From Candidatus Moraniibacteriota bacterium (GTDB lineage Bacteria > Patescibacteriota > Minisyncoccia > Moranbacterales > UBA1568), in the NCBI GenBank assembly GCA_052035095.1, contig JBPOHW010000001.1, positions 108,857-172,856 on the forward strand: DNA of 64,000 nt, written 5' to 3'. Made by a program: the position numbers and the translations under genes. Shown here in pieces: positions 1-18,460 of this stretch (positions within the stretch are counted from its first letter, which is position 1; every line of letters begins with the position of its first letter). A model generated the notes under the pieces. It saw nothing but the letters and a program-made list of their open reading frames with translations. It made no database searches and was not told the origin of the DNA.

Positions 1-1121
1 CGATCGCGACCTACGCCGCTCTTTTTCCGGCGGTCTGGGTCAAACCCGAAATAATTCTCGAGGGCACATTCCTCTCCGCCGCCTTCAAAAGCACCTGGCC
101 GCTCTTTGCGGGCGCCATCACCCTCCTGGGACTCGACACCATTCTCTTCAAGGGGAAAATCTCGGGGACACTTCTTGGTATCCTCTCGCGATTTCGATCA
201 ATTCCCGCCGCACTTCTCGCCGGAACACTTCTCGCGCTCTCGGTATTTGTCTGCATCAATACCTGGCTCGGGATGAAGTGGTTTGATTTCGAAGCCTTTG
301 TGATGTCGCCCAAGAATTCGGAAGAAAGCGCGACGCTTATCAAATCAATCGGCACGATGCTCTCCGATATCTACAGTCTCATTTTCGGGCTCCACCCGAT
401 CGCTTTCCTTTTTCTCCTCTCGGCGCTCATTCTCATAATACTCCGAAAAATGAAACACTCGCGCGAAGAACTCGTCGTAGTATCATTCGCGCTCTTCATT
501 CTGCTCTACTATCTCGGCTCGACGGCAAACTACGTCGTCGCCACGGTCCGTTACCAAATCGCGCTCTATCCCCTCGCTTTCATCATCGCGGCAATTGGCG
601 CCGTTTCGATGTTTGAGAGCCTGAATATCCGAAAATATTCTTCATCATTCCAACGATCTGTCGCCACGCTCCTCCTTCTCTTGATACTCTCGGCCAGCCT
701 CTTCTTCGCGCGCCCGCATTACCTCACCTACGCCTCTTCCCTCCTTCCCGAAACCCATATCTTGAATTACAAAGATATGGGCGACGGAAGCTATGAAGCG
801 GCCGAATATTTGAACACTCTCCCCAACGCCGAAAGCCTCCGCATCTGGTCGGACAAAGGCGCCGTCTGTGCCGCCTTTGTCGGCGACTGCTCGGTGAGTT
901 TCAACAAGAAGCGTTTCGAGGCGAATATCCCCGACTACATCGTCCTCTCCACCGGACGCAAACGAAAAACCGTCAATATGTGGCTCTCCAGCAATGTCCC
1001 CATCCGCTTCCAAGACGCCTATGAAACGGTTCCGCCGGAATTCGCCGTCATTCTAAACGGCCGCCCCGATAACTTCGTCAAAGTCATCGACGTCAAAAAA
1101 GCCTGGCGAGAAGAAGAATAA
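1..1121 (+). CDS. Membrane glycosyltransferase, GT39/ArnT-like (PMT family), C-terminal part; 5' end lies outside the window
   Basis: Frame 3 is open from position 3 with no stop until 1121. There are multiple hydrophobic TM helices followed by a soluble C-terminal domain, typical of the GT-C fold. It lies in a glycan-biosynthesis neighbourhood. Confidence 0.5.
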   Translation, partial: IATYAALFPAVWVKPEIILEGTFLSAAFKSTWPLFAGAITLLGLDTILFKGKISGTLLGILSRFRSIPAALLAGTLLALSVFVCINTWLGMKWFDFEAFVMSPKNSEESATLIKSIGTMLSDIYSLIFGLHPIAFLFLLSALILIILRKMKHSREELVVVSFALFILLYYLGSTANYVVATVRYQIALYPLAFIIAAIGAVSMFESLNIRKYSSSFQRSVATLLLLLILSASLFFARPHYLTYASSLLPETHILNYKDMGDGSYEAAEYLNTLPNAESLRIWSDKGAVCAAFVGDCSVSFNKKRFEANIPDYIVLSTGRKRKTVNMWLSSNVPIRFQDAYETVPPEFAVILNGRPDNFVKVIDVKKAWREEE

Positions 1122-5673: not shown

Positions 5674-6003
5674 TCAAATTCCCATTTTCCGCCTTGCCAG
5701 GCGATACTGATCATCACTCATCATACCGCTCTTTCGCGCCTGCTCGAGTTGCGCGAGAATCTCATCCTTGTGCTTCGCGATATTCTTGGGCGTCATCGCC
5801 TTTTTCAAAACCTTTTCGCGCTCGGCGGGCGACATTTTCATGAGCTGTTTCATCGCAAACTTCTGGAACATCCCCATATCTTTTGGGTCGGGCGCCCCCG
5901 GCATATCGGCGAGTTTCTCCTCAAAGCTTCGATCGTCTTTCTTCTCGACAACCGTCGGCTTCTTCTTGTCATCTTTCGGTTTTTTGGCAAATGGATTCCA
6001 CAT
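5674..6003 (-). CDS. Hypothetical small lysine-rich protein
   Basis: 109-aa ORF in operon orientation between secF and ugd. No recognisable domain. Confidence 0.4.
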   Translation of the reverse strand: MWNPFAKKPKDDKKKPTVVEKKDDRSFEEKLADMPGAPDPKDMGMFQKFAMKQLMKMSPAEREKVLKKAMTPKNIAKHKDEILAQLEQARKSGMMSDDQYRLARRKMGI

Positions 6004-6167: not shown

Positions 6168-7286
6168 TTACCTCCTCTTCCCCTTCTTCTTTTTCTTCTT
6201 GTGTACTTTTTTGGTTGAAGAAGAGAGTCGTGGAGGTTCGGAAATGACCGGCGCGGAGCCGAGGGTAGATTCGCCGATACCGAGAGAACGCATATTTTCC
6301 TCCGAAACCGGTTCACTCCTTTTTTCTTGTCTTTCTCGCTTTTCTTTTTTTCCCTTTCCGAGAGAAGTTTCCATTTTCCGAAGTGCGCGGTTTTTCTGAA
6401 AGATATTGCCGGTCACAAGGAGCGCGGTCGCGATATAGATGGATGAATAGGTTCCCGCCGAAACGCCAATCAAAAGCGCGACCGCGAATGATCGGATGGA
6501 CTCGCCGCCAAAAATACTGATCGCGATAAGGACAATAATCACGGTAAACGACGTATTGAACGATCGCGCAATCGTTTGATTGAGCGAGCGGTTCACGACG
6601 CCTTCGAAGTCCTCCTTGCCGCCGGAACGGATGAGATTTTCGCGGATTCGGTCATAGACGACGATGGTATCATTAACCGAATAACCGAGAATGGTGAGGA
6701 GCGCGGCGATAAACGGCGCGCCGACCTCGATACCGTAAAACTTCCCGAGAAACGAAAAGACGCCAAGCGTAATCACGATATCATGCGCGAGAGCGACGGT
6801 CGCCTGAACCCCATAGTGCCACGACGATACCGGGCGCGACACGCCGCGAAACGCCCACGCGATATAGAGAATGATGCCGATCACCGCGAGGATGAGCGCG
6901 ATGATGGCGTTTTTCTTGATACTCTCCGACACCGACGCCCCGATAAATTCGGAACGGATGAGCTCAATGTTCTCATCGGTCTTTTTGAGTTCAGCGAAAA
7001 CTGCCTCATTCACCGTTTCATCGGACGACGCGTAGCGAATAAGCGTGTTCCGATCTCCCGACGTCTGAACCACGAGACTCTCGACGCGCGGAACCTTGAC
7101 CAGCATTTCTTCTATCGCGGATTTTTCCGGAATCTTTCCCTCGCTCCACGACACCTCGAGGAGTGTCCCGCCGCGAAAATCAATGCCGAGTTTGAGTCCC
7201 CACATCGAAAGCATCGCGATACTCGCGATCGTGATCGCTATCGAAAAAGCGTAGAAATATTTTCGTTGTTGAATCAGTTGTCTCAT
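6168..7286 (-). CDS. secF: Protein translocase subunit SecF, with a lysine-rich C-terminal tail
   Basis: SecF TM architecture. The start MRQLIQQRKY overlaps the secD stop by 4 nt (ATGA); the longer upstream ORF extension is rejected. About 70 C-terminal residues are K/E-rich, ending KKKKKKGKRR. Confidence 0.85.
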   Translation of the reverse strand: MRQLIQQRKYFYAFSIAITIASIAMLSMWGLKLGIDFRGGTLLEVSWSEGKIPEKSAIEEMLVKVPRVESLVVQTSGDRNTLIRYASSDETVNEAVFAELKKTDENIELIRSEFIGASVSESIKKNAIIALILAVIGIILYIAWAFRGVSRPVSSWHYGVQATVALAHDIVITLGVFSFLGKFYGIEVGAPFIAALLTILGYSVNDTIVVYDRIRENLIRSGGKEDFEGVVNRSLNQTIARSFNTSFTVIIVLIAISIFGGESIRSFAVALLIGVSAGTYSSIYIATALLVTGNIFQKNRALRKMETSLGKGKKEKRERQEKRSEPVSEENMRSLGIGESTLGSAPVISEPPRLSSSTKKVHKKKKKKGKRR

Positions 7287-8992
7287 AATGAAGGAGTGGA
7301 AATATCCGGACGTTTGCGTTTGGGAACAAGCAGGAAAAGACGCTTTTCCGCCCACGCCCCGAGCATGGAAGAAAGCATCGTCCTCGTCAGTACAATGGCC
7401 GTGAACATTGAGAAGAGGACGCCCAAAAGGAGCACAAACGCGAAGCCCTTCACGAATCCGGTGCCGAGCCACATCAAAATAACGCAAGTGATGAGCGTCG
7501 AATAATTTCCGTCGCGAATCGACGGCCACGCGCGCCGGAATCCTTCATCAACCGCCTTCGCGAGATTCTTGCCGCTCTTCATCTCTTCCCATGTCCGTTC
7601 AAAAATGAGAATGTTGGCATCAACCGCCATACCGATCGAGAGAATAAATCCCGCGATACCGGCCAAAGACAAGGTGATCGGAAACGGCGTGAGACTCGAA
7701 AGCTTGAAAATCGCAAAGAGAAGTCCGGTATAGAGGAGGAGAGAAAAGGACGCGACGAGTCCGAAAAATCGATAGTAGAGAATCATAAACGCTATCACCA
7801 CGCCGACACCAATCATCCCCGCGAACAAACTCTGCTTGAGCGATACCTCGCCGAGAGACGCCGAAACCGTCTGCTGACCGATGAGCGTGATCGGCGCCGG
7901 AAGCGCACCCTCGTTGAGCCGCGCGACGAGCGCTTTCGCCTCCTTGAGGGAATAGTCGCCGGTAATGACCGCCTGGCCGTTCGGGATCTCAGCCTGCACC
8001 GTGGGCGCACTGATAATCTCGCCGTCCAAAAGTATCGCGATTTGTTTGCCGATGTTTTTCTTGGTAAGTTCGCCGAACAATTTCGCGCCCTCGGCATCAA
8101 AGCGGAGCGACACCTGTGGGAGTCCCATTCCCTGACCTCCACCGTAGTCCACAAACGCGTCTTTCAAATTCTTGCCGGAGAGTCCGGTTGCCTTGAAACG
8201 CGCGGCCTCGGGAAGCATCTCGAGCGATTGTTTAGGGAAAAGGATGTGCGACGTGCGCACTTCTTTTGCATCTCCTTCACCTCGCTCATCCGTCTTTTTG
8301 ACGACGTGCCATCCGAACGGCGATTCGACGAGATCGGGCCAGACGGTATCTTTTTTGAACTCGTCTTTGAAAATAATTTCATCGAATTCCTTGACGAATT
8401 TCCCCTTCGTCGCGAAATCCAAATCGCCGCCCTTCTCAGTGCTTCCGGGATCTTTACTCTCTTTCTTGGCAAGCTCGGCAAAATCTTCGTTCTTCTTGGC
8501 GCGCTCCAAAACTTCGACCGCTTTCGCTTTCGACGCCTCATTTATCGTGTCGAGTTGTTTCTGTACCGCCTCGGTATTGTCTTCTTGAAACTCAAGATAG
8601 GGCGTTTCTTTGAGTATTTTCTTCGCCTCGTCCACATCTTTGACGCCCGGCAATTCTACAATAATTCTATCTTCGTTCCCGGAACGCGAGAGCTGAACCA
8701 AGGGCTCGCCGACGCCAAAGGCATTCACGCGCCGCTCAATCACCGCGAGCGCCGACTGAAGCGCGGCGCTCCGCTTCTCCTCCGGAATTTGCGACGTATC
8801 AACCTTGTACTCAAGGTGAATCCCGCCCTGCAAATCAAGCCCGAGATTGACACGCAAGCTCGAAACAGCGCTCCCGAGCCACGGCACACTCGAAACCGCC
8901 CGCGGATACGCCATCACGCCCGCGACTACCGCCAAAAGAATAACTCCGAGCAATCGGAGCTCCCGCCATCGTTTCATATTCATATGCCGCAA
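7283..8992 (-). CDS. secD: Protein translocase subunit SecD, with a parvulin-like (PpiC-type PPIase) segment inserted in the periplasmic P1 domain
   Basis: SecD TM bundle plus P1 head. The inserted segment DFAELAKKESKDPGSTEKGGDLDFATKGKFVKEFDEIIF ... SPFGWHVVKK matches the PpiC rotamase core motifs. Confidence 0.85.
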   Translation of the reverse strand: MRHMNMKRWRELRLLGVILLAVVAGVMAYPRAVSSVPWLGSAVSSLRVNLGLDLQGGIHLEYKVDTSQIPEEKRSAALQSALAVIERRVNAFGVGEPLVQLSRSGNEDRIIVELPGVKDVDEAKKILKETPYLEFQEDNTEAVQKQLDTINEASKAKAVEVLERAKKNEDFAELAKKESKDPGSTEKGGDLDFATKGKFVKEFDEIIFKDEFKKDTVWPDLVESPFGWHVVKKTDERGEGDAKEVRTSHILFPKQSLEMLPEAARFKATGLSGKNLKDAFVDYGGGQGMGLPQVSLRFDAEGAKLFGELTKKNIGKQIAILLDGEIISAPTVQAEIPNGQAVITGDYSLKEAKALVARLNEGALPAPITLIGQQTVSASLGEVSLKQSLFAGMIGVGVVIAFMILYYRFFGLVASFSLLLYTGLLFAIFKLSSLTPFPITLSLAGIAGFILSIGMAVDANILIFERTWEEMKSGKNLAKAVDEGFRRAWPSIRDGNYSTLITCVILMWLGTGFVKGFAFVLLLGVLFSMFTAIVLTRTMLSSMLGAWAEKRLFLLVPKRKRPDISTPSL

Positions 8993-9097: not shown

Positions 9098-9379
9098 TCA
9101 TGGCGCAAGTCGCCATTGTTTCAGCATCTCCTTATTTCCCGCTTTGAGCGATTCCAACTTCTCTCGCTCCATTGTTTCATATCTCGCCGTTCCTTCGGAC
9201 AGCGAGATCGAGGTCAGAGCGTTTTTCACCATTCCCCTTTCGGGAAACAGAATAGCGAGAACGACGAGTAGGAGCAGAACTCCGATCACGCCAAACGGAA
9301 GCGCCATACCCCCAAGAATATCGCGCTTCGAAAGGCGATATGACCCGCCAGAAAACAGACGTTTCTTTTGACCACTCAT
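9098..9379 (-). CDS. Hypothetical small single-pass membrane protein
   Basis: 93-aa ORF with one strong TM helix, immediately upstream of secD in the same orientation. It does not match the YajC consensus. Confidence 0.35.
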   Translation of the reverse strand: MSGQKKRLFSGGSYRLSKRDILGGMALPFGVIGVLLLLVVLAILFPERGMVKNALTSISLSEGTARYETMEREKLESLKAGNKEMLKQWRLAP

Positions 9380-9627: not shown

Positions 9628-10119
9628 TCACCTCTTGAGTTTTTCAGCTTCATCTCGCCGCATGGCAACATCACGAGCCTTCGGCGAAAGTATTTGGATG
9701 ACAACTCCTTCCTTGCAGTTGGAAAATTCTTTTCCACTTCTTCCTGCGCAAGATTGTTTAAGGAGTGCTCGAAACTTTTTATCCTCCTCGACGGATCGAG
9801 CAAGTCCTATTTGAAGACACGACTCATAGTTATATCGAGCCATTGCGTCATCAACGGATACGACTTCTCCGCGAGGCGGATATGTCTTCGAAACTGGAGT
9901 ATATTTCGACTCGCATGACGCCAGAGTTCGCACAACGCCCTCACGTTCCGACATGGGTATGCCCTTCAAGTTCACGCGAGTTGGTGAGTCACTGAATGAG
10001 CGAACAGTCCTCCCTATTCCATTCCTCACCTCATAAAGACCACTTTTCAGCTCGTTCAGATTCGCGCAACCGGAAAGCAGTGCTGCTATCAGAATGACAA
10101 AAAAAGCTTCTTTCCTCAT
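9628..10119 (-). CDS. Hypothetical lipoprotein
   Basis: Signal peptide ending in the lipobox LLSGC, followed by a soluble domain. Confidence 0.5.
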   Translation of the reverse strand: MRKEAFFVILIAALLSGCANLNELKSGLYEVRNGIGRTVRSFSDSPTRVNLKGIPMSEREGVVRTLASCESKYTPVSKTYPPRGEVVSVDDAMARYNYESCLQIGLARSVEEDKKFRALLKQSCAGRSGKEFSNCKEGVVIQILSPKARDVAMRRDEAEKLKR

Positions 10120-10188: not shown

Positions 10189-10695
10189 CTATTTCGACAG
10201 TATTTCGTACGCGAATCGGAGGAGGCGTTTGGCATTTTCAAAAGTGGCGCGTTCGATAGCCTCCGCAAACGGGAGCCAAACAGAATCAAGATGTTCGTCC
10301 GAAAGACGAACAACGCTCTCCCGAGGCGCCTCCGCCAAAAAGAAATGCACGGTTTTGATAATCCACGGCGCGCGACCCTCCTTTTTTCGACGTTCGATTT
10401 CGGTGCCCTTGGCGACATAAAAAAAGTGGATGCGCCGGTGAAACTTTGGAACGAATTGGATGTCAACTAATCCGGTTTCCTCTTCGGTTTCTCGCCGCGC
10501 CGCTCCTTCAAACGTCTCACCGTCTTCAACGTGCCCCTTGGGAAAATCCCAGTGTCGGTGGCGGTATTGCAACAACAAAAATTCGAGAATACCACCCTCG
10601 GCGCGCCGAAATACGACCGCCCCCGCCGACACCTCATAGGCGATCGGAAGCCCCAGTATCCGTTCAATTCCCGGTTTTTTGGTAAAAGGTTTCAT
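10189..10695 (-). CDS. NUDIX hydrolase
   Basis: Nudix box GHVEDGETFEGAARRETEEETGL. The start is taken at MKPFTKKPG; the longer upstream extension is rejected. Confidence 0.75.
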   Translation of the reverse strand: MKPFTKKPGIERILGLPIAYEVSAGAVVFRRAEGGILEFLLLQYRHRHWDFPKGHVEDGETFEGAARRETEEETGLVDIQFVPKFHRRIHFFYVAKGTEIERRKKEGRAPWIIKTVHFFLAEAPRESVVRLSDEHLDSVWLPFAEAIERATFENAKRLLRFAYEILSK

Positions 10696-10816
10696 AGGAA
10701 TAACCGACAACTCGCAACAAACAACTGACAACTCACTTCTAAAAATCCACTTACCGCTCACGATACGTTGTTTGTTGTCAATGGTCTGTTGTTTGTTATG
10801 AATTTTTCATTAGACG

Positions 10817-12073
10817 TTAGGTCCCTCCCCGTATCGCTTGAATCGGATCGATGCGCGAGGCTTTCCACGCGGGATAGGTGCCAAAAATGATACCGGAGAA
10901 AAACGAAAAGCCGAGCGCCAAAAACACATTCTCCGCCGAAAAGACAAAAGAGAGCGGATATCCCAAAGCGGCAATCGCCGAAAAAGCCAGGAAGAGAATA
11001 CCGGAGGAGAGAAGGATGCCAATCAGACCGCCCGAAAGCGCGACGAGTGTCGCCTCGATCAGGAACTGCCGGAGAATATCTTTGGGACGCGCGCCGACCG
11101 CTTTGCGAAGTCCGATCTCGGACGTCCGCTCGGCAACCGACACGAAGAGAACATTCATAATGCCGACCCCGCCCACTACAAGCGAAATGGACGCGAGCGC
11201 AATGAGGAGTATCCGCACCGCGCCAAAGACCGAACTCACCAACTCCTGCGCTTCTTGAATGGACATTATTGAATAGTCTTCTTCGCCTTTCTTCCGAATA
11301 TCGTGCCGATCGCGCAGGACTCGATCGATTTCGACCATCGCGCCCTCCACTCGATTCTCGTCGCGCACCGATACCGTGATAAAACTCACGGAATCCACGC
11401 CGAGAATCTTGGTCTGCATCGTACGAAGCGGAATATACGCGAAATCGTCAAAACTCACAAATCCCGTCGAACCGCGCTCTTCGAGAACACCCGAGACGCG
11501 ATAGCTCTGTCCCTTGATAGTGATGGATTTCCCAACCGCCTCGCTCTCCCCGAAAAACACTTTTTTTATCTCGGAACCAAGTACCACAACCTGCGCCGCG
11601 CCCCGATCTTCCGCGTCGGTATAAAAGCTCCCCTCCGCGACGGATATTCCGCGATCAATGCTTGGCGCTCCCGACGTCGCTCCGAGCAAAAACACCTGCT
11701 TGTTGGTGTCTCGATACGTCGCGAGCGCCTGTCCGACAATACCGGCATAGTACCCGGAAACGTCCGAGAGTTTCTCGATCGCCTCCGAGTCATCCACGGT
11801 GAGCGTCGTCACCTGTATTCCCTGCGCGATCCCACCCGCGTTCTCCGATGACACGTGTTCCGCCGACGGCACCTTCACCTCAATCTGAATCGTGTTGCCA
11901 CCATAACTTTCTATTTGCTTCAGGACAAACTGCTCAACCGCGTCTCCGGCGGATGCCACTACGAGAATCGCGACCGTCCCGATAATGACGCCGGAAATCG
12001 TCAGAAGCGTCCGTCCGACATTCGTCGAGAGACTCTTCCACGCGAATTTGAGCGACAGAAACAATTCATGCAT
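10817..12073 (-). CDS. ABC transporter permease, MacB/FtsX family (MacB_PCD + FtsX domains)
   Basis: N-terminal TM helix, large periplasmic domain and C-terminal three-helix FtsX domain (GGVGIMNVLFVSVAERTSEIGLRKAVGA). Confidence 0.8.
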   Translation of the reverse strand: MHELFLSLKFAWKSLSTNVGRTLLTISGVIIGTVAILVVASAGDAVEQFVLKQIESYGGNTIQIEVKVPSAEHVSSENAGGIAQGIQVTTLTVDDSEAIEKLSDVSGYYAGIVGQALATYRDTNKQVFLLGATSGAPSIDRGISVAEGSFYTDAEDRGAAQVVVLGSEIKKVFFGESEAVGKSITIKGQSYRVSGVLEERGSTGFVSFDDFAYIPLRTMQTKILGVDSVSFITVSVRDENRVEGAMVEIDRVLRDRHDIRKKGEEDYSIMSIQEAQELVSSVFGAVRILLIALASISLVVGGVGIMNVLFVSVAERTSEIGLRKAVGARPKDILRQFLIEATLVALSGGLIGILLSSGILFLAFSAIAALGYPLSFVFSAENVFLALGFSFFSGIIFGTYPAWKASRIDPIQAIRGGT

Positions 12074-12097: not shown

Positions 12098-13345
12098 CTA
12101 TTCATAGCGAAGCGCTTCCATCGGAGAAACACGCGCGGCGCGACGGGCGGGATAAAGACCGAAGACGACGCCGACCGTAAGCGAGACGATAGAAGCGACG
12201 AGCGCCGCCGGCATTGTGAGGAGAAATTCCCATTCATACCCGGCAGAGCGAATACCGACCGCCGAGAGATATGTCAGAAGAATGCCAAGGAGAAATCCGA
12301 AGAAACCGCCCAAGAGCGAGAGAAACATCGCTTCGATCAGAAATTGCAAGAGAATATCCGCGTCGCGCGCCCCGATCGCCTTCCGAAGCCCCACTTCGCG
12401 AATGCGTTGCTTGAGCGCGATAAGCATAATGTTCATTATGCCGATACCGCCCACAAAAAGCGAGATGCCGGCGACAAACGCGAGGAAATATTTGAGAACA
12501 CTCGTGAGAGAGGTGAGCGTCGAGATGGCCTCGGCGGTATTTCGCACCGAAAAATCATCTTGTTCCGATCCCTCAAGGTCATGCCGATCGCGCAAGAGAA
12601 GACGAATTTCTTCAGACACAAGCGGGATATTTTTTTCTTCATCCACTTTGACGCGCGCGAAATTGAGATAGTCGATGCCGAGAAGGAGTTTTTGCGCGAC
12701 AAGAAGCGGAATATAGATATTGCCATCAACATTGGAGAAGCCCGAACTCCCCTTCTCTTCGAGAACGCCGATCACGGTAAAGCTTACCTCATCAAGCGAG
12801 AGCCGCGCGCCGATCGGATCCTCTTGCCCGAAGAGATCGGTGGCGCGCGCCGATCCCAAAACCGCGAGCCGATCCATACTCGCCGCCTCTTCTTTGGAAA
12901 AAAATCGTCCGCGCGCGAGCGAAATGTTTTCAACGTGTACGATATCCGCCGACATGCCCTGATATGACGCCTCGAAAGATTCGCTCCGCGATGTCGCCGT
13001 AGCGGTTCCACTCACGTATCCCGCCCCTGCAACCACATGGGGCACGCGTTTTTCCGAAAGAATCGCGTCCAGATCCTTGTTCGTGAATGTGGTTGTCACG
13101 ATGCCAAAAACGGAAGCGGGCGGCCCCTTGGGATCGGACGCGCCCGGCAAAATCGCGATCAAATTGGACCCAACCCCGCGCACCTGTCCCACGATGAAGT
13201 TTTGCGCCGAAGCGCCGATCGACATCACGAGAAAGACCGCCGCGATCCCAATCACCATCCCGAGAACCGTAAGAAACGTCCGCACCTTGGTCGCCGCAAG
13301 ATTCCTCGCCGCCATCCGCACGGATTGCGCTATTCGTCGAAACAT
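12098..13345 (-). CDS. ABC transporter permease, MacB/FtsX family (paralog of 10817..12073)
   Basis: Same architecture, including GGIGIMNIMLIALKQRIREVGLRKAIGA. No ATPase subunit is adjacent. Confidence 0.8.
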   Translation of the reverse strand: MFRRIAQSVRMAARNLAATKVRTFLTVLGMVIGIAAVFLVMSIGASAQNFIVGQVRGVGSNLIAILPGASDPKGPPASVFGIVTTTFTNKDLDAILSEKRVPHVVAGAGYVSGTATATSRSESFEASYQGMSADIVHVENISLARGRFFSKEEAASMDRLAVLGSARATDLFGQEDPIGARLSLDEVSFTVIGVLEEKGSSGFSNVDGNIYIPLLVAQKLLLGIDYLNFARVKVDEEKNIPLVSEEIRLLLRDRHDLEGSEQDDFSVRNTAEAISTLTSLTSVLKYFLAFVAGISLFVGGIGIMNIMLIALKQRIREVGLRKAIGARDADILLQFLIEAMFLSLLGGFFGFLLGILLTYLSAVGIRSAGYEWEFLLTMPAALVASIVSLTVGVVFGLYPARRAARVSPMEALRYE

Positions 13346-14203: not shown

Positions 14204-17200
14204 TTACATTCCGGCGCCCTGCACCATCCAGTAGAAATTGCTACAAGTAGTATCTCTACACCCACAGCGCCAAGAGCCGCCTTGGACACTACACGTCATC
14301 CCAACAAAGTACGCCGGTGCGCTCGCGCTTGCCGTTGAAATATTGGGGTTGGTGATCGTAGCGGAGACACTCCCCTGGCACCAGTCGCCGTTCTGGGCTC
14401 CCGTGCAGGTTCCCGTATATTGTGTCCAGGCACTTCCGGTGTAGTAGTAGCCCTTGGTATAGACGATCCGTGTCGTGTCACCCGTTTGTCCGAGAGTCGC
14501 TTGGATGGTATGCGGGTCGGATGATAAGCAGGTGGCATTTATGAGGTTCGTGCTCGTTTGGAACGCATCAAACGGCGCGCCGTAACTGTCGTAGGCGGAT
14601 TGGGAGAAGTTCGCGGTTGTCACGGTATTGCAGGGGGTGAAGGTGCCTCCGCTTACATATTCATCCGCGCCAATATCGATGCCGCCTCCTTGAGGACGGG
14701 TATGGCCATCGAAGTCATCAGTGAGCCCGGAAATACTCGTACCGGCATTGTTCGCCGAGGTGGTACCGCTTGCCAAATGAAGATCGGGAAGTGAGGCGTT
14801 TACAAACCAACTTGATTGAGCATTCGTAATATTATTCGAGAGTGTTGCCGCTGCCCCATCTCTCGCCTGTATCGCTTTGTTGGTAAGGTTGTTTCGAATC
14901 ACGAGACCGGAACTTAGAGGAAAGCGGTACTCGATGGCGTTCGGGTAGGTGTTTTGCATGAAGATCGTGTTGTTGTAGATTTGCGTATTCGGACTCTCAT
15001 CCGCCTCGATCGCGACATCGGCGAAAGAACCGTTGCCGCTTGCGTGATAGATCATATTGTTGCGGATAATGCCACGGAGGTGCCCGCGTCCCTGCACGAG
15101 ACCGAACCCGATACCGCGATCGCAATTGATGATGAGGTTCTTTTCGACGAGCGTGTCTTCGGAATTGCTCCAGAAATGAATGGCATGTTCTGCGACCGAT
15201 CCGCTGGGGCTGATGATATTCTTGAATGTATTACCGCGCACGATCCAGTTCTTGGCATTATGCGCGTCGATACCGCCCGTGTAGTATTGTCCCGCCTGTC
15301 CCGAAGTGAATTCAAAGAGAGAGTTTTCGACGAGACCATTGTCAGATCCGACCGTACTCGTATCGATATAGGTTACTTTGAGCATTTGTTCCCACGCGTT
15401 TCGAAATACCATATTCTTTGCCGTGAAATTGTCGCGATTATTCTCGCCGACCACTTGGATGAGATGCCAACCGACCCGTTGAAGCGTCATACTTTCCGCC
15501 GTGAAGTTGTTGGCATCTACCCGGAAAATCATCTTGACGCTCGCGCTTGATGTCATGGCGTCCCCCTGGAGGACGACGGTGTCTCGATTTCCCGATTGAC
15601 TCTTTATGGTCATATTGGGAGCGGAAATGGGGAGCATATCCGAAAGCGTATAGGTGCCATCAGCAATGAGAATAGTTGTCGAACACGAGGGATTGCTGTT
15701 TGCCGTATTCACGGCATTTGCGAGTTGGGAAACACTGTTTACGGTGACAGTGTTGCAGACGGTTCCGCCGCCACCCGATTGTGTGGTCGCACCCACGACA
15801 TTGCTCCAGCCGGAAAGATTGCCGGCGGCATCGGTCGCGCGGACATGGTAGTTATAGAAGGTATTTGGAGTGAGGCCGGAGTCGACGAAGGGAGAAGCAG
15901 TTGGCGTGCCGACTTGGGTGAAGTTGGAACAGCCCGTGCCTTGGCACCGTTCCACGATGTAGCCCGTAACGGCAACGTTGTCGGTGGCGGCGGTCCAGGT
16001 GACGGAGATGCTACTGGAAGAAGGAGCGGAAGCGGCAAGATTCGTGGGAGAAGTAGGGGGTGTCGTATCGCCGCCTCCTCCACCACTGTTCCCCTTCACT
16101 TCCACGGCGGCCAAAGCCCAGGTCATGCCGGTCGGTGCCGTTATTCCAATCGTTTTGTTGCCAGCGCTCCCGGCATTCGCATAGTAGCCGGCTTCGACAC
16201 CGTAGGTACTGCCGTCGGCATAGGCGCTCGTTTCAGTGAAGGTTCCGGCTTGCGAAGTATTGTAGGTTCTCGCTCCCGTTCTTGCGCTCCAGTCGCCGTT
16301 TACCATCACGATGCTTGAGTTCTCACCAACGCCGTTCAAGGTTAGGGTCGGGTTTCCGGTTGCGCTGTTCGCTTGCGCGGTCACACCAATGCCACTCGCG
16401 TTCCTGAAGTGGAGAACATCGCCGCCGAAGTTGCCGCCGTCATTGGTGAAGGAGACATTCACATTGGTTTGATTGCTCGCAACGTTCATCGTCCAGAGAC
16501 GGAGGAAGGTGAAGTTTGAGGCAGAGATCGTTTGGCGGAGGGTCCAGGTGCCAGTGAGGGTGCCAATCGGAGGAGTGGCTATCGTGGTGCTGGAACTTTC
16601 ATTCACGGCATAGGCGACGAGAGTGTCGCCAGACTGGACAGAGAAGTTAGTGGTCGTCTTTGGGGAGGTACTCGTATTCCACGCGGTTTCGTATTCAGAG
16701 ATAAAAGTGGGAGACGGAGGCGCGACTGGCGTTGTTGCGGAAGAAATATTTGAGTAACCAGAGTTGTTTCCGGCAGCGTCGGTGGCGCGGACTTGGTAGC
16801 GGTAGAGAGTGGAGGCAGAGAGTCCCGTGTCGGAGTAACTGGTGGAGGTTTGGGTGCCGATTTGGGTGAAGTTCGTACAGGAAGCGCCGGAGCAGCGTTC
16901 GACTTTGTATTGAGTGACTCCGACATTATCGGTAGAAGCGGTCCAGGTGAGGTTAATCGTGCTAGAAGAAGAGGCTGTAGCGGAGAGGTTGGCGGGAGTT
17001 GAGGGAGGAGCGGTGTCGGGAGCTTGAGTCGTTGCTCCAACCACATTGCTCCAGCCGGAGAGGTTGCCGGCAGCATCAGTGGCTCGGACGTGGTAGTTGT
17101 AGAAAGTGTTTGCCGTGAGACCAGTGTCCATAAATGGAGAGGCGGTCGGGGTGCCGACTTGGGTGAAATTGGAACAGCCCGTGCCTTGGCAGCGTTCGAC

Positions 17201-18460
17201 TATGTAACCTGTCACTCCAATGTTATCCGTCGATGCCGTCCAAGAAACGGAGATGGAAGATTGGTTTGGGGAAGTCGCGGCGAGGGTGGTCGGGGAAGTG
17301 GGAGGGGAGGTGTCGGGGGTGGAAGCGCCGGAAACTTGATAGACGTGAATCTCCGGATTGTCCCCATAATTAAGGGCAATATATATTCGTCTTGTCCCAG
17401 GATCATATGCAAGACCAGAAAATGTCATCTTTGCACAACTGTCATTTGGTCCCGGAAGTGTCCACCACGTGTAGGGTCTGACCTGATGGGGCTGTTTCGT
17501 TCCATTCTTTACCGCAAGCAGTTCATTTGCATCGAAAGCGGTCACTTGTCTTCGATAGGGTGCTGCCCCTTCACCATTAATCCCACCACATCCACCGTCA
17601 TCTTGTTTGTACGTAGGTGGTCCATAACCATGACGCCCGATGTACAGCACCGAGCGATAGCCAGAAGGAAAAACTAATCCCGCTGTGTAGTAGTCGGATC
17701 GCGAATAATAATTATTGGCAACATTCGCGTTATCGAGCGGGTTGGCCAAGGTATAGTACATCAATGGGATACTGGGAATGGGAGTTGTCACATTTACATC
17801 GTCCGGGTTAAAGACATAAAAGGTTGGACCGTTTGCGGAAACACTGTTAATCGACATGGGACCACTGCAGGTGAACGCCGGCCCACCCAACAACAATTGC
17901 CATTCCGGCGGAATTATTCCCATGCAACCGTTCCCGTACGCAGCGCTATTTAGGTTAGCCATACCGCGAAAAGTACTAAAACCACCAATATTCAGATTCC
18001 CAACGGCATGAGTCGGTCCACCCCCATTCGTATCATACGGAATTCTTTTTTGAACGATGAGACGACCATTGTACACAAATGCCCCTGAGAGCTCGGTGGT
18101 ACCGCTCCCAACAGACCCCGGAATACTAACCGGATCCTGAATCACCGTAGTTGAGCCACCAAGTGTCGCTGGTATAGCAATACGACCAAGGCTTTGGTTG
18201 TAGACATGGCCGCCCATGTAGAGACTTTGTCCGTCTGCACTCACAGCGAGTCCCATACCACCGTAAGCAAAAGAATTGGCAGAGCTTCCGGAGCCGGGAT
18301 TTGGAACGGTAAACTTCCCAAGATAGGTAAGATCACCTTGCTGAAGAAGCGACTGCGTGGTTGCATCGGCAAAAACATACTGACCCGAGAACATAGCAAA
18401 CAGAATTGCAAAAACAAAAATTAACACCCCAACCGGACATCTTAGCTGTTTCATACGCAA
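14204..18460 (-). CDS. Giant secreted/surface protein: signal peptide, N-terminal domain, three fibronectin-III domains and a right-handed parallel beta-helix (pectate-lyase-like) domain
   Basis: 1418 aa with the signal peptide MRMKQLRCPVGVLIFVFAILFA. Three FN3 repeats (about 80 percent identical at the DNA level). Beta-helix repeat signatures (NMTIKSQ.., IRNNMIYH.., NNTIFMQ..). Confidence 0.8.
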   Translation of the reverse strand: MRMKQLRCPVGVLIFVFAILFAMFSGQYVFADATTQSLLQQGDLTYLGKFTVPNPGSGSSANSFAYGGMGLAVSADGQSLYMGGHVYNQSLGRIAIPATLGGSTTVIQDPVSIPGSVGSGTTELSGAFVYNGRLIVQKRIPYDTNGGGPTHAVGNLNIGGFSTFRGMANLNSAAYGNGCMGIIPPEWQLLLGGPAFTCSGPMSINSVSANGPTFYVFNPDDVNVTTPIPSIPLMYYTLANPLDNANVANNYYSRSDYYTAGLVFPSGYRSVLYIGRHGYGPPTYKQDDGGCGGINGEGAAPYRRQVTAFDANELLAVKNGTKQPHQVRPYTWWTLPGPNDSCAKMTFSGLAYDPGTRRIYIALNYGDNPEIHVYQVSGASTPDTSPPTSPTTLAATSPNQSSISVSWTASTDNIGVTGYIVERCQGTGCSNFTQVGTPTASPFMDTGLTANTFYNYHVRATDAAGNLSGWSNVVGATTQAPDTAPPSTPANLSATASSSSTINLTWTASTDNVGVTQYKVERCSGASCTNFTQIGTQTSTSYSDTGLSASTLYRYQVRATDAAGNNSGYSNISSATTPVAPPSPTFISEYETAWNTSTSPKTTTNFSVQSGDTLVAYAVNESSSTTIATPPIGTLTGTWTLRQTISASNFTFLRLWTMNVASNQTNVNVSFTNDGGNFGGDVLHFRNASGIGVTAQANSATGNPTLTLNGVGENSSIVMVNGDWSARTGARTYNTSQAGTFTETSAYADGSTYGVEAGYYANAGSAGNKTIGITAPTGMTWALAAVEVKGNSGGGGGDTTPPTSPTNLAASAPSSSSISVTWTAATDNVAVTGYIVERCQGTGCSNFTQVGTPTASPFVDSGLTPNTFYNYHVRATDAAGNLSGWSNVVGATTQSGGGGTVCNTVTVNSVSQLANAVNTANSNPSCSTTILIADGTYTLSDMLPISAPNMTIKSQSGNRDTVVLQGDAMTSSASVKMIFRVDANNFTAESMTLQRVGWHLIQVVGENNRDNFTAKNMVFRNAWEQMLKVTYIDTSTVGSDNGLVENSLFEFTSGQAGQYYTGGIDAHNAKNWIVRGNTFKNIISPSGSVAEHAIHFWSNSEDTLVEKNLIINCDRGIGFGLVQGRGHLRGIIRNNMIYHASGNGSFADVAIEADESPNTQIYNNTIFMQNTYPNAIEYRFPLSSGLVIRNNLTNKAIQARDGAAATLSNNITNAQSSWFVNASLPDLHLASGTTSANNAGTSISGLTDDFDGHTRPQGGGIDIGADEYVSGGTFTPCNTVTTANFSQSAYDSYGAPFDAFQTSTNLINATCLSSDPHTIQATLGQTGDTTRIVYTKGYYYTGSAWTQYTGTCTGAQNGDWCQGSVSATITNPNISTASASAPAYFVGMTCSVQGGSWRCGCRDTTCSNFYWMVQGAGM

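Follow-up and report, generated by a model that had tools for sequence, protein, structure and literature searches.

Can the membrane motor that draws proteins out of the Sec channel also carry the enzyme that begins to fold them? The question is raised by the secD gene in a 64,000-nucleotide stretch of a Candidatus Moraniibacteriota bacterium genome (GenBank assembly GCA_052035095.1, contig JBPOHW010000001.1, forward-strand positions 108,857 to 172,856), analysed here at full length and called the window. A preliminary description of this DNA, made from its letters, had noted in the P1 domain of the encoded SecD a segment resembling a PPIase (peptidyl-prolyl cis/trans isomerase) of the parvulin type. 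We consider it likely that the gene encodes a functional SecD in which a circularly permuted parvulin-type PPIase is built into the junction between the base and the head of P1, so that one protein would act as pulling motor and first foldase, two tasks that usually fall to different proteins. Feature coordinates are collected in Table 1.

The parvulin-like segment is borne out by profile matches. Rotamase_3 (Pfam PF13616) matches residues 149-236 with 76.8 bits (cutoff 22.5, E 2.6e-21) and Rotamase (PF00639) residues 150-235 with 63.9 bits (cutoff 21.7); PrsA, SurA and PpiC models from NCBIfam also match residues 155-240, and in comparison with PDB sequences query residues 155-239 are matched by the parvulin domains of solved PrsA and SurA structures, PDB parvulins reaching E 1.6e-13. 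The peptides originally picked out are found at 170-208 (DFAELAKK...), 225-233 (SPFGWHVVKK) and 246-252 (RTSHILF). An insertion had been rightly diagnosed, but it is longer than the ~110 aa first proposed (~127 residues, 139-265), and it lies not between two head segments but at the junction of the SecD_1st and P1-head profiles, where positions 1-17 of the SecDF_P1_head profile find no match. Ordinary SecDs lack the segment, as had been supposed: in T. thermophilus SecDF the site spans no more than ~40 residues (119-161), and in those top-ranking search hits that have no insert LEF[KR] and TGL[ST]GK are separated by 12-73 variable residues. The insertion site is a hypervariable loop that a domain has colonised. 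The window SecD gave no Pfam match to a SurA_N-like or other chaperone domain and contains no lipobox.

The order of structural elements sets this domain apart. Canonical parvulins run beta1-alpha1-alpha2-alpha3-beta2-alpha4-beta3-beta4, with one conserved histidine each on the first and last strands (S1, S4), hydrogen-bonded in the core (PMC2678132). The insert departs from this order: its native Pfam match begins at position 32 of 116 in Rotamase_3 and position 14 of 97 in PF00639, the strand ahead of alpha1 is SecD's own YLEFQED, and beta4 (GWHVVKK), a conserved ERGEGD loop and EVRTSHILF follow in direct succession. A circular permutation, with alpha1 to beta4 preceding beta1, had been suggested as a possibility and is now strongly supported by this profile order, by computational de-permutation, by the AlphaFold2 (AF2) models and by covariation. 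When the strand is moved ahead of alpha1, the Rotamase alignment reaches 1-97 of 97 and the Rotamase_3 score stands at 88.3 bits, against 83.8 for a reversed-strand control and 80.4 for a strand-truncated construct; in five divergent homologues the gain over reversed-strand controls is +0.6 to +5.5 bits for Rotamase_3; for PF00639 the difference lies between -3.5 and +1.7 bits. De-permutation lifts the match to PrsA1 (6xd8) from 53.3 bits to 60.8 bits (E 1.3e-15), with EVRTSHILF aligned to EIKASHILV; in the comparison with 2m08, KEVRTSHILFPKQS is aligned to NKIKCSHILVSKQS, and in that with SurA P2 the strand falls on TEVHARHILL. The alignment to the beta1 strands of solved parvulins takes in the histidine and the KQS that follows, and no comparable strand occurs at the insert site in SecDs that lack the insert.

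Structure prediction, which had been proposed as a check, returns a confident module. In the AF2 model of full-length SecD, whose overall predicted template modelling score (pTM) is 0.45, the insert is the highest-confidence part, and modelled alone (residues 128-275) it reaches a predicted local distance difference test (pLDDT) score of 92.1 and a pTM of 0.81. The predicted order is SecD strand-alpha1-alpha2-alpha3-beta2-alpha4-beta3-beta4-beta1'-SecD strand, with a long hairpin of beta4 and beta1'; the strand over the relocated beta1 is assigned at E241-250 in the full-length model and at E117-126 in the insert model. Foldseek matches the insert model to the PPIase 8hm4_B (probability 1.00, 116 columns, root mean square deviation 3.6 A, 32% identity), and 8hm3 and 8hm4 are its only significant matches for the insert-only model, with single-domain parvulins not ranked. 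Foldseek aligns sequentially and hence is blind to permutation; the poor ranking of single-domain parvulins may be due to the permutation together with the long alpha1.

Covariation was measured as mutual information with average product correction (MI-APC) on 189 non-redundant single-unit inserts (effective number, Neff, 119). Of the 30 strongest covarying pairs, nine connect residues 244-254 with beta4, alpha4 or beta2, where 3.0 would be expected (binomial P=0.002), and the top pair overall is T234-S248. The entry linker (138-150) covaries antiparallel with the exit linker (255-264), which is what a domain inserted with adjoining ends should show. H229 and H249 also occur together, as His/His in 183 sequences and as Ile/Ile in 2 (two homologues reading GWIIVKK ... 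RISIIAF), a pattern of joint His or joint Ile that mirrors the S1/S4 hydrogen-bonded pair of Pin1, where the H59L/H157L double mutant is active (PMC2678132). The new chain ends are at the former beta1-alpha1 (S1-H1) loop, beside the active-site cleft, and are joined to the SecD strands YLEFQED and FKATGLSGK; the GEGDAK loop takes the place of the canonical chain termini as the point of joining, and relatives have extra insertions there. Some Moranbacteria SecDs carry 10-15 additional residues (e.g. KPARNASQSDAGG) precisely in this beta4-beta1' loop. The tandem parvulins of SurA (P1-P2) and of the Bacteroides fragilis PPIase (8HM3/8HM4) offer a possible origin: because the insert in its native order is collinear with parvulin 1 (alpha1 to beta4) plus beta1 of parvulin 2, with 8hm4 residues 167-273 aligned to query 153-263, its sequence fits a duplication/deletion route to the permuted form. 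Those tandem proteins keep complete canonical units, whereas the window SecD has a single unit with beta1 last.

The same insertion recurs in every close homologue examined. Rotamase Pfam domains are present in 120 of the 120 best homologues (60-100% identity; NCBI, JGI, ENA and Logan assemblies), among which those named are Candidatus Moranbacteria/Moraniibacteriota and all of which are annotated solely as 'protein translocase subunit SecD'. When the insert and its flanks were searched against GTDB species genomes, at least 376 tblastn-confirmed relatives came up; in the best 80 of these the insert and both SecD flanks are fully covered at 46-90% identity, and the closed 1.05-Mb Moraniibacteriota genome CP064994.1 (L003) is one of them. 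When the P1 domain was searched exhaustively with HMMER against 1.84 billion cluster representatives (50% identity), 92 of the best 150 matches proved to carry a parvulin-like insert. Named hits are all Patescibacteria, or Candidate Phyla Radiation (CPR), save for some metagenome-assembled genome (MAG) record titles that are apparently mislabelled. Many GTDB-representative MAGs (L002, L004, L009, L016-L018 and others) are titled 'uncultured Bdellovibrionales bacterium' and carry a Moraniibacteriota-type SecD with up to 72% insert identity; the titles are probably a taxonomic mislabel by the submitter.

The protein that hosts the domain looks like a genuine, working SecD. The TIGR01129 secD model scores 388.1 bits (NCBIfam cutoff 244.4) and matches residues 50-540 over profile positions 1-397 of 397, the Pfam domains SecD_1st, SecDF_P1_head and SecD_SecF_C all exceed their cutoffs, and T. 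thermophilus SecDF (3aqp) matches at E 7e-71 by PDB sequence comparison, its residues 23-135 aligned to query 38-155 and 162-426 to query 273-544. AF2 secondary structure reproduces the SecD topology of a first transmembrane helix (TM1), a large P1 domain and a five-helix transmembrane (TM) bundle with the proton-path Asp; P1 is placed on the extracytoplasmic side because TM1 precedes it, as in 3aqp. Foldseek, given the full-length model, retrieves 5xan, 5yhf and 3aqp at E about 1e-21, and its matches are SecDF and resistance-nodulation-division (RND) transporters only. The Asp of the MAVDAN motif is unchanged across 98 homologues. Downstream, the secF ATG (7286-7284) overlaps the secD TGA stop (7285-7283, minus strand) as ATGA, an overlap that implies translational coupling of the two genes. 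It is the profile score above cutoff, the conserved TM aspartate and the coupled secF that argue for a functional SecD. The actual start of secD is probably the ATG at 8983 (M4) rather than the TTG of the 569 aa open reading frame (ORF), giving a protein of 566 aa, the length of a database protein (P0001) that is 100% identical to the window SecD. The SecF C-terminus (6168-6390, minus strand) extends past the SecD_SecF_C domain as a low-complexity tail of ~75 residues rich in Lys, Glu and Ser (...KKVHKKKKKKGKRR).

The residues expected of an active parvulin, namely a histidine on S1, Asp or Cys, Ser or Thr, a histidine on S4 and a hydrophobic proline pocket, are in place. The active-site codons, all on the minus strand, are D181 (8450-8452), S224 (8321-8323), H229 (8306-8308) and H249 (8246-8248), conserved within the clade at 100%, 88%, 98% and 98%, respectively, and the proline pocket is conserved at L191 (100%), F199 (88%) and F203 (97%). 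These positions align to their counterparts in PrsA and SurA P2, both of them active domains, and in an archaeal parvulin. Since both the active site and the proline pocket are conserved, we prefer a catalytic to a non-catalytic role, and the best reading of the window SecD is as a putative working foldase tethered to the translocon. The preliminary description had offered a degenerate, non-catalytic binding module instead; that part is disfavoured for the window SecD and applies to the first unit of tandem forms found elsewhere.

In SecDF the P1 head, which binds the unfolded chain as it emerges, swings at the expense of the proton-motive force. We propose that in this SecD the head, so driven, would grip the unfolded chain leaving SecYEG with the parvulin riding on it, and that the parvulin would bind proline-containing unfolded segments and catalyse their cis/trans isomerisation while the chain is pulled and let go. 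Motor and first foldase would then form one covalent translocation-folding unit, a covalent counterpart of the partnerships of PrsA, PpiD or SurA with Sec that might suit a single-membrane bacterium with a small genome. The cleft likely lies close to the two-stranded connection to P1.

Several points weigh against this proposal. The profile gains upon de-permutation are small and alone not decisive, and both the pairing of beta1' with beta4 and the contact of the two histidines are deduced from secondary structure and covariation. Conservation of residues is not proof of isomerase activity, and the permutation cuts the S1-H1 loop, which in canonical parvulins aids substrate binding (PMC2678132), so that specificity or activity may differ. 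With a pTM of 0.45, the full-length model does not fix how the cleft is turned towards the P1 head and SecYEG. Finally, that these genomes lack a separate PrsA-type foldase is a supposition: the search for a second, canonical parvulin covered the 64-kb window, found none there and is silent on the rest of the genome.

The most serious alternative, although an unlikely one in our estimation, is that the insert serves as a non-catalytic chaperone or substrate clamp which enlarges the surface of the P1 head and improves capture or reduces backsliding, with no isomerisation. PPIase-inactive parvulin domains are common in Sec-associated chaperones (PpiD, PMC9643414; Mdp436 and Mdp489), SurA P1 being another, and the severed S1-H1 loop, the loss of the beta4 histidine from the same-position unit of tandem relatives and the change of both histidines to isoleucine in two close homologues all speak for it. 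Conservation of the four active-site and three pocket positions at 88-100% throughout the single-unit clade, the window SecD included, is however unexpected for a mere binding surface, and the double His-to-Ile change is compatible with activity to judge by the Pin1 double mutant. Much less probable is an unpermuted insert, in which the parvulin would be truncated, without beta1, and the SHILF strand would belong to the SecD P1 head or a linker. This would explain why the native-order Pfam match leaves that strand uncovered and why de-permutation gains little, but the strand is absent from insert-less SecDs, aligns to the beta1 of solved parvulins including its His and KQS, covaries with parvulin beta4, alpha4 and beta2, and is part of the single rigid module predicted by AF2 (pTM 0.81); a parvulin sheet deprived of its central His-bearing strand would moreover expose the core (fold as in PMC2678132). 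An assembly or binning chimera is ruled out by the 120 homologues, the 80 or more GTDB species and the closed genome CP064994.1, and the chance that the insert is either such a chimera or a recent one-off insertion without functional significance is negligible, given that it is also present in other CPR lineages, the reading frame is uninterrupted and AF2 models it with high confidence. These observations also dispose of the concern, voiced at the outset, that a weak rotamase match or an insertion confined to this one contig would undo the proposal: the profile match is highly significant, and the survey of homologues gave the insertion in all 120 of the closest and in the best 80 GTDB species genomes.

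Solved SecD and SecDF proteins from T. thermophilus and Deinococcus radiodurans (3AQP, 5XAN, 5YHF) and E. coli SecD (5MG3) share with the window protein TM1, the P1 base and head, five more TM helices with the Asp, and an adjacent SecF. Where the window SecD has its ~127-residue parvulin these proteins have a short helical excursion (~40 residues in T. thermophilus), and none of the solved SecD sequences matched contains a PPIase domain. The best sequence match to the insert is PrsA (Bacillus, Staphylococcus, Listeria), which has the same active-site residues and, like the window parvulin, would work at the outer face of the membrane beside the Sec exit. PrsA, though, is a separate lipid-anchored dimer with a parvulin of canonical order set within an NC (SurA-like) chaperone domain, whereas the window SecD has no NC domain and no lipobox and holds a permuted parvulin on a SecD P1 scaffold. 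Its anchor being the SecD membrane domain, it resembles the PrsA, SurA and PpiD chaperones in its proposed working and is not a member of their type. Parvulin-containing chaperones held at the Sec exit, as proposed here, are known from several systems: PpiD/YfgM docks on SecYEG (PMC9643414), SurA on the Sec machinery (PMC9987972), and in genome-reduced Mycoplasma PrsA-like PPIase lipoproteins (Mpn444, Mpn436, Mpn489) crosslink to SecD and build a dome above the translocon (10.1101/2024.09.05.611430, 10.1101/2025.04.25.650208). All of these are separate, non-covalently associated proteins, in contrast to the window parvulin, which lies within the SecD chain and would move with the P1 head.

Relatives outside the single-unit clade carry more elaborate versions of the insert. 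Two parvulin units are found in SecDs from other Patescibacteria (P0130, P0132, P0134, P0138, P0141, P0152, P0163); two-unit proteins of ~650-700 aa occur in the Parcubacteria group and in Buchananbacteria, and relatives of ~780-900 aa have extra segments. Because the insert is also carried by SecDF fusions of ~1000-1100 aa in Peregrinibacteria and Gracilibacteria (P0160, P0391-P0508, P0129), the parvulin-SecD architecture spans several deep CPR lineages. Tandem forms are laid out as alpha1(A) to beta4(A), EVKASHILI, alpha1(B) to beta4(B), a trailing strand and the head; unit B matches the canonical Rotamase profile from end to end (1-97 of 97), and the histidine is lost from beta4(A), retained on the middle strand and beta4(B), and usually absent from the trailing strand (for example VSRILFEKKT, similar to TSHILFPKQS of the window SecD). 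Read most simply, these sequences suggest a permuted unit A, now degenerate, whose beta4-beta1' loop houses a canonical parvulin. A 633-aa SecD (P0166) has at the same site a 145-residue insert with no Rotamase profile match, which may be a fully degenerate parvulin remnant. A wider scheme, which we put forward only tentatively and think rather doubtful as a whole, is that Patescibacteria absorbed a parvulin into the SecDF motor, that this is the first natural permuted parvulin and elsewhere hosts a nested canonical parvulin in its beta4-beta1' loop, that movement of P1 is mechanically coupled to isomerisation and chain hand-over, and that in these reduced genomes SecD, in place of a free-standing PrsA, is the main extracytoplasmic foldase.

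Both component families are well known, and domain databases already tag both Pfam families, so their co-occurrence is retrievable. The fusion is nonetheless un-annotated, database copies being labelled SecD alone, which makes the feature invisible in current annotation, and as far as we have seen it is undiscussed: a full-text literature search, whose coverage excluded most subscription-journal papers, turned up no account of a SecD fused to a parvulin, of a permuted parvulin or of a CPR foldase. How proteins fold on leaving the Sec channel is an open question, and parvulin chaperones have recently been shown to dock non-covalently on the translocon. A covalent SecD-parvulin fusion conserved in many Patescibacteria is 'Rosetta-stone' evidence that P1 and a parvulin foldase share substrate and moment, and provides a one-polypeptide system for the study of export-folding coupling. 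It also adds a natural circular permutation to the parvulin fold, with apparent tandem and nested forms elsewhere, and suggests how very small genomes economise on envelope proteostasis.

Table 1. Features of secD and secF in the window (positions are those of the window; residues are those of the 569 aa SecD).
Feature	Residues	Window position	Strand	Basis
secD ORF	569 aa from TTG	7283..8992	-	TIGR01129, 3aqp match
TM1, N-terminal TM helix	about 12-30	8903..8959	-	AF2 helix at model residues 3-25; hydrophobic LRLLGVILLAVVAGVMAYP; 3aqp topology
SecD/SecF GG motif	48-67		-	Pfam-A
P1 N-terminal (base) segment, last strand YLEFQED	79-138	8579..8758	-	SecD_1st, E 1.3e-18
Inserted module, circularly permuted parvulin-type PPIase domain plus entry and exit linkers (strongly supported)	139-265	8198..8578	-	boundaries against insert-less SecDs, AF2, Foldseek, covariation
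Parvulin core alpha1-alpha2-alpha3-beta2-alpha4-beta3-beta4	149-236	8285..8548	-	Rotamase_3 profile 32-115 of 116; conservation; codons verified
beta4-beta1' hairpin loop GEGDAK	238-243	8264..8281	-	AF2 secondary structure; loop-length variants in homologues
Relocated strand beta1 (S1) EVRTSHILFP	244-253	8234..8263	-	aligns to solved parvulin beta1; AF2 strand; covariation
P1 head subdomain	268-366	7895..8191	-	SecDF_P1_head E 5.8e-29, profile 18-114 of 114
SecD TM domain (TM2-6)	371-542	7367..7882	-	SecD_SecF_C
MAVDAN aspartate motif in TM domain		7613-7630	-	aligned to T. thermophilus SecDF GAAVDGNVL
secF	372 aa	6168..7286	-	Pfam SecD_SecF_C E 3.5e-56

The genes around secDF were also surveyed. 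Three small ORFs without a Pfam match flank it at 9628-10119, 9098-9379 and 5674-6003 (all minus strand), and the 163-aa one among them opens with a lipoprotein-like signal (LLSGC). A NUDIX hydrolase gene lies at 10189-10761, and upstream of secD are two adjoining paralogous genes for MacB/FtsX-type ABC permeases (MacB_PCD plus FtsX) at 10817-12073 and 12098-13345, both on the minus strand. A 1418-aa ORF at 14204-18460 (minus strand), which probably encodes a large surface or adhesion protein, has three fibronectin type III domains along with one that is Ig-like.

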